A DNA stretch of 64,000 nucleotides from a bacterium (GTDB taxonomy: Bacteria; Patescibacteriota; Minisyncoccia; Phycocordibacterales; Phycocordibacteraceae): positions 192,001 through 256,000 of the forward strand of contig JBBCGK010000001.1 in NCBI GenBank assembly GCA_037200965.1. The letters are read 5' to 3'. The translations under genes and the position numbers were made by a program. The notes beneath the pieces were generated by a model, which was not told the DNA's origin, did no database searches, and saw only the letters and a list, made by a program, of their open reading frames with translations. Positions 29,850-30,083 of this stretch are shown piece by piece (positions within the stretch are counted from its first letter, which is position 1; every line of letters starts with the position of its first letter).

Positions 29850-29990
29850 GTTTTCGGACATCCCGGCACTTTTTCTCATCCTTGAGACGTTCCGGGACCG
29901 GAGTTATCTCCGAGTCCTAAGGGTCCACCGGCATGCCGGAACGGGACTTCTGCCCTGTAACAGGGCGGCCGCGAGGCCAACAAAACCCCG
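29850..29990 (+). ncRNA. Candidate tracrRNA (anti-repeat at about 29858-29905 plus downstream hairpins)
   Basis: CATCCC...CTCATC...GACG...GGACCGGAGT in the leader is complementary to repeat segments GGGAUG, GAUGAG, CGUC and ACUCUGGUCC (one G-U), in collinear order with bulges. CCGGCATGCCGG palindrome at 29928-29939. Hairpin CCTCC-gaga-GGAGG at 30048-30061. Confidence 0.4.
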
Positions 29991-30083
29991 CTTGTCTTGA
30001 TCACGCCCCCCTGATCTGAACGCGATATATCTTACTCTCTTCGGCCCTCCGAGAGGAGGTGCTACTACTAGAACTGCGCTTAG

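Follow-up and report, generated by a model that had tools for sequence, protein, structure and literature searches.

The 64,000-nt patescibacterial DNA analyzed here (the window; positions 192,001 to 256,000 of contig JBBCGK010000001.1) carries a small CRISPR locus. The region upstream of its array, at 29831-30001 of the + strand, is likely the gene for a scaffold RNA resembling trans-activating CRISPR RNA (tracrRNA). This RNA would serve a miniature type V system with an effector of the Cas12f/TnpB fold, typical of the Candidate Phyla Radiation (CPR)/Patescibacteria. Homology to related loci, helices, co-variation with the repeat, conserved synteny, a promoter and a terminator are all observed here. 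The scaffold and the array unit to which it belongs are laid out as follows.

29777-29804, + strand: predicted sigma-70-like promoter of the scaffold and array transcript (position kept in relatives)
29831-30001, + strand: tracrRNA-like scaffold RNA (match of covariance model R1)
29831-29880, + strand: stem 1, a perfect 12-bp inverted repeat in which GATGAGAAAAAG (29831-42) pairs with CTTTTTCTCATC (29869-80), with an apical hairpin
29890-29949, + strand: linker (TTCC) and stem-2 region (minimum free energy fold; covariance-model alignment to the variable stem 2)
29952-29966, + strand: stem 3 (GCCC/GGGC) with loop TGTAACA (covariance model, UUCUGCCCUGUAACAGGGC aligned to consensus UUAUGCccuGUAGCaggGC)
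29981-29999, + strand: 3' tail CAAAACCCCGCTTGTCTTG (covariance-model alignment to gAAAaCCCc)
30033-30083, + strand: degenerate repeat (30033-65) and 18-nt pseudo-spacer (30066-83) (local alignment)
30084-30619, + strand: CRISPR array (direct reading)
30637-30674, + strand: intrinsic terminator closing the scaffold and array unit (11-bp stem, then GTTTTTTATA)

Conservation and structure of the predicted scaffold RNA

Scans of genomes and metagenomes identified 52 related loci. Fourteen of the 16 genome loci are labeled CPR/Patescibacteria (Saccharibacteria, Staskawicz-, Kaiser-, Moranii-, Paceibacteria and others); of the other two, one is labeled only 'uncultured bacterium' and one Bacteroidia, while the metagenome contigs carry no taxon names. 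The relatives have a constant order: the gene for a ~425-aa effector, that for a ~245-270-aa Cas1, 180-255 nt of non-coding sequence and a short array with repeats of 39-41 nt ending in ..GGGGTATGCTAC. In about 40 CPR/Patescibacteria loci the scaffold RNA is located between the short cas1 and the array, and its tail lies 0-11 nt from repeat 1 without an intervening terminator. Many loci (L002, L008, L018, L019, L025, L031, L043 and others) have an inverted second scaffold-and-array module upstream of the effector. The window has the downstream module alone, and an IS30-type transposase gene is found upstream of its effector.

A covariance model (R1) was built from 16 relatives, with the window left out. 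It has a single match in the whole window, at 29831-30001 of the + strand, which is full-length (34.1 bits, E=2e-6). Nearly all of the related loci are matched at 50-155 bits. The relatives have in common stem 1 (GAGAAAAACA..TGTTTTTCTC) and then the linker TTCCTTGTGG. Next come stem 2, which is variable and precedes TTATGC, and stem 3, whose 4 bp enclose the loop (N)GTAGCA. Stems 4 and 5 follow, and the tail (GAAAACCCC..GCTC) directly adjoins repeat 1. The window copy is the most divergent of the family and has one small hairpin where the relatives have stems 4 and 5. Its stem-2 region forms two hairpins (GGGACCGGAG/CUCCGAGUCC and GGUCC..CCGGCAUGCCGG..GGGAC), and the covariance model puts TTCTGCCCTGTAACAGGGC (29948-66) on the stem-3 consensus.

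The scaffold is ~170 nt long and folds with a z-score of -2.3. In the 16 aligned sequences, 92.7% of the cells of the named structure are paired, compared to ~46% in slid controls, and 22 pairs change on both sides; none of 500 shuffles reached any of these measures. Helix 1 alone is paired in 92% of cases in the relatives, with compensatory changes. The tail helix (helix 8) was blurred by MAFFT register shifts in the column-wise count and was therefore recounted in a register-free manner. A cmscan of Rfam over 25000-31500 (E-value mode) gave no match in 29800-30100 and, elsewhere, weak matches far below the gathering scores.

The predicted promoter consists of TTGACG (29777-82), a 16-nt spacer and TAAGTT (29799-804), and ends 26 nt before stem 1. 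Its position is kept in the relatives: CTTGACA together with a -10 box occurs at the same distance upstream, with at least 9 of 12 matches in 30 of 42 loci versus 10% of shuffles. Promoter-bearing DNA directly upstream of the first repeat is what a CRISPR leader has, and it is also compatible with an RNA scaffold. Between the -10 box and stem 1 (29812-29830) the motif (G/C)TCTTTGA is kept, at the predicted 5' end of the transcript; the window and L027 both have GATCTTTGATATG. At the other end of the unit, a hairpin at 30637-30664 of the + strand is followed by a T-run, and related arrays likewise end in hairpin and T-run terminators. Judging from these signals, scaffold and array would be transcribed from this one promoter.

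Predicted repeat-contacting bases of the scaffold

Folding of scaffold and first repeat together led RNAalifold, unprompted, to join the 3'-terminal 6 nt of the repeat to the stem-3 loop; 16 of 16 sequences are paired there, with compensatory changes. The loop is a perfect 6/6 Watson-Crick complement of its own repeat in 34 of the 37 non-redundant loci, in eight co-varying loop/repeat forms: GTAGCA/TGCTAC, GTAGCG/CGCTAC, GTAGCC/GGCTAC, GTATCG/CGATAC, GTTACC/GGTAAC, GTGTCA/TGACAC, GTACCG/CGGTAC and GTAACC/GGTTAC. The tail (AAAACCCC type) complements GGGGT just upstream of these 6 nt and also co-varies with the repeat (ACGTCC/GGACGT, ACCACCC/GGGTGGT, AGCCC/GGGCT, TACCCC/GGGGTA). With repeats reassigned among loci, 0 of 20000 permutations reached the observed score, both for the loop and for the tail. 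A matrix of cognate and non-cognate duplexes over the whole intergenic regions showed no diagonal; the pairing emerged at homologous positions only. The anti-repeat of the family is bipartite (6 + ~5 nt) and reaches no further into the repeat than its last ~12 nt.

In the window, the first segment is GTAACA (29957-62), opposite repeat nt 35-40 (TGCTAC) with one internal mismatch (A29960 versus C37), and the second is CCCC (29986-89), opposite G30-G33 of the repeat; co-folding stretches the tail pairing to 13 bp, onto repeat nt 21-33. Several points weigh against the scaffold assignment, most of them specific to this copy. The binding energy of the whole window scaffold (-11.6) was matched by 35 of 200 shuffles. 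The window is one of the three imperfect loci, its loop pairing at 5 of 6 positions (the A-C mismatch) and its tail through 4 G-C pairs. It scores 34 bits compared to 50-155 in the relatives, lacks stems 4 and 5, and has 82 nt, including the degenerate repeat, between tail and repeat 1. As to the family statistics, the loop and tail test used manually chosen repeat 3' ends for some loci, and the covariation counts were drawn from related sequences with their kinship ignored. Finally, in view of the insertion sequences (IS) in the locus, the window copy may be decaying. Overall, this copy may work with weakened contacts, may use lineage-specific ones or may be on its way to decay.

These contacts differ from those of an earlier, sequence-only reading of the same DNA, which had placed a long, bulged anti-repeat to repeat nt 9-36 at the start of the leader; on such a model the downstream hairpins would form the tracrRNA body, a Cas9-like topology. 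As description it was accurate to within 1-2 nt. The segment GACATCCC...GGAGT lies at 29857-29904 (given as 29858-29905) and contains CATCCC (29859-64), CTCATC (29875-80), GACG (29886-89) and GGACCGGAGT (29895-29904). These four collinear blocks are indeed reverse complements of repeat nt 31-36, 24-29, 18-21 (given as 19-22) and 9-18 (one G-U). The palindrome CCGGCATGCCGG at 29928-39 and the hairpin CCTCC-GAGA-GGAGG at 30046-59 are also present; the palindrome and GGACCGGAGT both fall within the stem-2 region. The partial repeat said to precede repeat 1 is real (GAGGAGGTGCTAC at 30053-65, given as 30051-63) and is the end of the larger degenerate repeat at 30033-65, which aligns to repeat nt 8-40 with a local alignment score of 30 versus 15.6±2.9, reached by 0 of 2000 shuffles. 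A GATGAG-containing fragment at 29831-50 exists as well; it is the 5' arm of stem 1, and this arm (GAGAAAAAC) is conserved in all relatives whatever their repeat.

The long anti-repeat itself is improbable. In its favor, apart from the presence of the four blocks, are the moderately unusual 10-bp block with one G-U and the energies of the window segment with its own repeat (-24.9 and -31.8), lower than the means for other repeats (-18.4 and -23.6); some non-cognate repeats, however, bind it better (minimum -30.2 and -36.9). Co-folding of segment and repeat gave -33.9 versus -28.3±3.3 for dinucleotide shuffles, 13 of 200 being as low, and binding net of self-structure was the same as for shuffles (-9.2 versus -8.3±3.5, 76 of 200 as low). 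When the native flanks are included, the segment pairs internally, forming stems 1 and 2, and repeat binding drops to -4.2, with 157 of 200 shuffles as good or better. The segment/repeat duplex has -36.9 kcal/mol, compared to -26.1±4.4 for the window background, and 38 separate + strand sites in the 64 kb equal or beat it, ~1 per 1.7 kb, so that one inside a ~300-nt leader is unremarkable. Local Watson-Crick alignment of the reverse-complemented repeat scores 15 at the segment, as high as in 18% of windows. Across 37 loci the homologous region has no cognate-specific complementarity (-14.9 cognate versus -15.1 non-cognate; 3230 of 5000 permutations as low). Moreover, the segments lie in stem 1, linker and stem 2, and the blocks are taken up by conserved internal helices: CATCCC is within stem 1, CTCATC at 29875-80 contributes to its 3' arm, facing GATGAG (29831-36) in the 12-bp stem, and GGACCGGAG is the 5' arm of the stem-2 hairpin. 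Known type V tracrRNAs have their anti-repeat at the 3' end, upstream of the repeat-spacer, and the proposed segment is at odds with this arrangement as well. Designs of single-guide RNA (sgRNA) illustrate the 3' placement of the anti-repeat in type V (PMC10097598).

The proposed anti-repeat is therefore a chance resemblance that overlaps internal helices, whereas the repeat contacts predicted from covariation across relatives lie ~60-90 nt further 3'. What holds of the tracrRNA-like leader is a structured RNA on the array strand, recovered by the covariance search; the bases proposed to contact the repeat do not hold. More generally, a plausible bulged anti-repeat in G+C-rich DNA can arise by chance; here the real contacts came from covariation.

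Effector, Cas1 and organization of the locus

The genes upstream of the scaffold and the mobile element inserted between them and the scaffold are the following.

26216-27937, + strand: effector gene, 573-aa miniature Cas12f/TnpB-fold protein (PADLOC, alignment, AlphaFold/Foldseek)
27999-28691, + strand: short cas1 without the N-terminal domain (Pfam Cas_Cas1, TIGR00287; ATG at 27999 read from the sequence)
28692-29771, + strand: IS481-family insertion sequence (Pfam rve, rve_3, HTH_32; inverted-repeat alignment)

The earlier suggestion that a tracrRNA would fit certain type V subtypes agrees with this small protein: PADLOC assigns it to the profile Cas12_x1 (CAS-V-F) with an E-value of 1.5e-57, and its predicted fold is Cas12f/TnpB-like. 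As a single-sequence query it has no sequence match in Pfam, NCBIfam or PDB, and a word-indexed protein search recovered the query alone. Homologues required an exhaustive HMMER search, which identified 61 further representatives of roughly 100-550 aa (full-length ones mostly 400-510 aa), 30-46% identical over the matched stretches. The window effector is the most divergent member of the family, with two lineage-specific insertions in its 573 aa (alignment A1). The AlphaFold model has a mean predicted local distance difference test (pLDDT) score of 80 and a predicted template modeling (pTM) score of 0.71. Its best Foldseek matches are AsCas12f, Cas12m, CnCas12f1, dCas12f, OsCas12f and TnpB (E 1e-8 to 1e-5). 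Cas12f structures are found at E~3e-8, the dCas12f-guide RNA (gRNA) structure 9n9c is among the top fold matches, and the fold also matches ISDra2 and ISFba1 TnpB.

In the family alignment A1, RuvC motif I (GxDxG) is replaced by ALGAS, while the acidic residue of motif II is retained. The alignment has no CxxC pairs, and its C-terminus ('NKI.MA..LR') is without a conserved acidic residue. A profile-to-PDB alignment, though a weak match, sets 'VaLGas' of the family opposite 'VDLGI' of a TnpB-like nuclease, so that Ala faces the catalytic Asp. A type V-F effector has an intact RuvC triad and a zinc-finger/target nucleic acid-binding (TNB) domain; this protein, which lacks the zinc finger as well as motifs I and III of RuvC, does not. 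Because motifs I and III are lost, the effector probably binds DNA without cleaving it, and it may be comparable to the dCas12f of PMC12259090, to Cas12m or to Cas12k.

Cas1 matches Pfam Cas_Cas1 (5.7e-22) at profile positions 90-253 alone and TIGR00287 at positions 90-325. A similarly short Cas1 (about 245-270 aa, profile match from position ~80-130 on) is encoded in six relatives (e.g. L013 8213-8959). No cas2 or cas4 was found among the window open reading frames (ORFs) scanned, nor among the ORFs listed between effector and array in relatives. The array of the window consists of seven identical 40-nt repeats (GTAACGGTACTCTGGTCCGTCGAGATGAGGGGGATGCTAC), starting at 30084, 30155, 30226, 30297, 30368, 30440 and 30511, and of an eighth, terminal copy cut down to its 5' 25 nt (30595-30619). 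Its spacers are 31-32 nt long, except for the last one of 44 nt. Of the 29 related arrays examined, 22 likewise end in a repeat of which only the 5' half is left (23 of 30 including that of the window). Since both the short Cas1 and the truncated last repeat recur in relatives, they are family traits rather than decay.

Further features of the arrays stand apart from these points. A 142-bp repeat-spacer-repeat-spacer unit is duplicated exactly within 30084-30336, with the result that spacer 1 equals spacer 3. The 44-nt last spacer (30551-30594) opens with AACACGGGGAAAATGGCC, which matches 27713-27730 of the effector gene with 2 mismatches in 18 nt. The match covers the conserved QNTGNMA motif of the effector, the spacer reading NTGKMAAML in frame, and the chance expectation for it is ~0.02 across all spacers; the spacer looks as if it had been derived from a homologous effector gene. 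Many relatives (L013, L015, L002, L038, L044, L046, L007, L006, L043) have, in the 10-25 nt that follow their truncated last repeat, a complement of the scaffold linker that precedes stem 2 (for example, CCACAAGGAAT versus ATTCCTTGTGG). The two co-vary (ATCCTTGTG/CACAAGGAT, GAGTTCCAT/ATGGAACTC), with an energy of -12.0 for cognate pairs versus -10.5 (37 of 10000 permutations as low). At 30620-30636 of the window this linker-complementary sequence is not present. In one relative (L037), spacer 1 (after 6351) matches perfectly at ~3090 in an IS481-like transposase gene (2917-3834, - strand), ~3 kb away on the same contig. Such a self-target would be tolerable if the effector does not cut; the window locus itself also holds an IS481-family insertion.

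This insertion has imperfect terminal inverted repeats, a transposase ORF at 28737-29780 and a 5-bp target duplication (GCTGC at 28687-91 and 29772-76). According to the empty-site reconstruction, it detached the last 10 codons and the stop of cas1, originally 29777-29806 (native stop 29804-06). The duplicated GCTGC is the sole sequence (5 bp) between the element and the -35 box of the scaffold promoter. IS30-type transposase genes lie on both sides of the locus (25105-26148 and 31081-32052), and the gene after the array is rplU. Between the effector stop and the cas1 ATG, at 27953-27985, a G+C-rich hairpin (ACGCCCGGA..TCCGGGCGT, then CTTTTTATTT) resembles a terminator separating the two cas genes; the single database signal there is a weak Rfam Esr41 match (27913-27983), far under threshold. 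Outside the locus, an 878-aa DnaB-like helicase ORF (33150-35786, - strand) has an apparent intein-like insertion (..CLTGDTLV .. VHN) when its translation is read.

Proposed mechanism, alternatives and known systems

The observations can be combined into a putative mechanism. We infer that the scaffold is expressed, processed and bound by protein, acting either in trans or in cis. Its transcript would initiate at the sigma-70-type promoter within the 3' end of cas1 and run in the array direction, probably through the array to the terminator at 30637. The RNA would fold into stem 1, linker, variable stem 2, the 4-bp stem 3 (plus stems 4 and 5 in relatives) and a single-stranded tail. The stem-3 loop would pair with the 6 repeat nt adjoining the spacer, forming a guide-adjacent pseudoknot, and the C-run of the tail with the G-run just upstream in the repeat. 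Scaffold, 3' handle of the repeat and spacer would together make up the guide RNA bound by the effector. Since RuvC motifs I and III have been lost, the complex would probably act by binding DNA rather than by cutting it.

Could the region be a CRISPR leader alone, that is, a promoter with Cas1 integration signals conserved at the DNA level and without an RNA function? It does abut the first repeat in relatives and holds a conserved promoter, and the tail motif GCTC beside repeat 1 could be a leader-anchoring site. However, five helices keep their pairing through compensatory changes, ~170 nt form a stable structure, and two segments track complementary rather than identical repeat bases, which is expected for RNA pairing and not for protein-binding DNA motifs. 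We have rejected a leader-only function, which seems very improbable, on the grounds of the compensatory helices and the repeat-tracking segments. Even less credible is that the complementarity is a relic of an inverted, degenerate ancestral repeat-spacer unit. A degenerate repeat does exist at 30033-65, although a direct one, and tracrRNA anti-repeats are thought to come from repeats. Yet the scaffold sequence, including GAGAAAAAC, TTCCTTGTGG and TTATGC, is kept across loci with differing repeats, and the reverse-complemented repeat aligns at the segment in an ordinary way, as the 18% of windows that do as well indicate; an inverted fossil repeat was rejected for these reasons. A scaffold that acts in cis, making a single guide like omega-RNA through fusion to the first repeat-spacer or to the whole precursor, instead of a trans-acting tracrRNA, is a real though minor possibility. 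It would agree with the single promoter, with the close, terminator-free junction of tail and repeat 1 in relatives and with loci in which the scaffold is followed by a single repeat or by no repeat (L043, L018). Relatives of the dCas12f type also use single chimeric guides (PMC12259090). On the other hand, arrays of 3-12 repeats all retain the complementary 3' end, implying that each unit is paired, and the window scaffold is those 82 nt away from repeat 1. A cis-acting scaffold is a variant of the scaffold explanation, not an alternative to RNA function.

Compared to known guide RNAs, the scaffold is closest to the tracrRNAs of type V-F (Cas12f/Cas14), including those of NanoCas type. Its locus combines a Cas12f-family effector with a CRISPR array, a layout repeated in ~40 loci. 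It lies beside the miniature Cas12f-fold effector, just upstream of the array and on the same strand, and has multiple stems, two unpaired segments complementary to the 3' part of the repeat and a guide-adjacent pseudoknot. At the family level the anti-repeat is present, bipartite and co-varying; in the window copy it is weak. For NanoCas-like systems, compact tracrRNAs have been described that lie <100 bp upstream of the array and leave two anti-repeat segments unpaired (bioRxiv 10.1101/2025.01.29.635576), and a guide-adjacent pseudoknot with a short repeat:anti-repeat helix is conserved in TnpB omega-RNA and Cas12 guide RNAs (PMC10097598). In contrast to type V-F tracrRNAs, the present scaffold is ~170 nt long, has a family-specific stem 1 and no Rfam match, its anti-repeat totals ~11 nt, and it abuts the first repeat, with which it is apparently co-transcribed. 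The effector also departs from type V-F systems in its missing zinc finger and its loss of RuvC motifs I and III, and adaptation is represented by the N-terminally shortened Cas1 alone.

Other comparisons are less close. Like TnpB omega-RNA (also termed reRNA), the scaffold is long and structured, forms a pseudoknot with guide-adjacent bases and is followed by the guide, and the protein folds match. However, omega-RNA shares sequence with the 3' end of its nuclease gene and ends at the right end of the transposon, before a single fixed guide, whereas the scaffold lies ~1 kb downstream of the effector gene, past cas1 and ahead of a multi-spacer array, and is not at a transposon end; with an array and cas1, guides would be acquired instead of fixed. 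The scoutRNA of Cas12c/Cas12d, a non-coding RNA of small size, touches the repeat at just a few complementary bases and not through a long duplex, and in this general description the present scaffold is similar. ScoutRNAs, unlike it, belong to systems with large effectors (~1200 aa) and with repeats and spacers that are short. With dCas12f and TldR the effector shares a C-terminal truncation that removes part of the RuvC site while the Cas12f-like fold is retained. Those two kinds of protein are mostly not CRISPR-associated; they are tied to regulons, that of sigma-E or others, and their guides are single chimeric ones, no tracrRNA having been detected (PMC12259090). The present family, by contrast, has cas1, arrays with varied spacers and a scaffold co-varying with the repeat. 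No sigma factor was noticed among the annotated neighboring ORFs of the window, where no systematic search for one was made.

This CPR family was not found described in the literature that was searched. As a type V tracrRNA or split omega-RNA, the element is of a known kind. New are the scaffold of the family, its minimal bipartite anti-repeat, the coexistence of a short Cas1 and an effector that looks dead, and the shortened last repeat. As a tentative suggestion, less likely than the scaffold assignment itself, the family may be a miniature type V system that is nuclease-dead by nature and yet, with its short Cas1, still adaptive, with an omega-RNA-like scaffold co-transcribed with the array, and hence a living intermediate in the split of omega-RNA into tracrRNA and CRISPR RNA (crRNA). 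It would have extra parts (the truncated terminal repeat with the linker-complementary sequence, and the inverted duplicate modules) and might silence mobile elements by binding, as the perfect self-match to an IS481 transposase gene in one relative would fit.

For a family of ~425-aa Cas12f-like CPR proteins, the guide-RNA scaffold and the exact repeat-contacting bases are now defined, which is a prerequisite for reconstituting the system or designing a single-guide RNA. If the effector is catalytically dead, the family would represent a natural CRISPR system of small size that binds DNA and has retained a gene for adaptation. It would then bear on how TnpB-derived proteins shift among nuclease, repressor and immune roles, and on the origin of tracrRNA from omega-RNAs.

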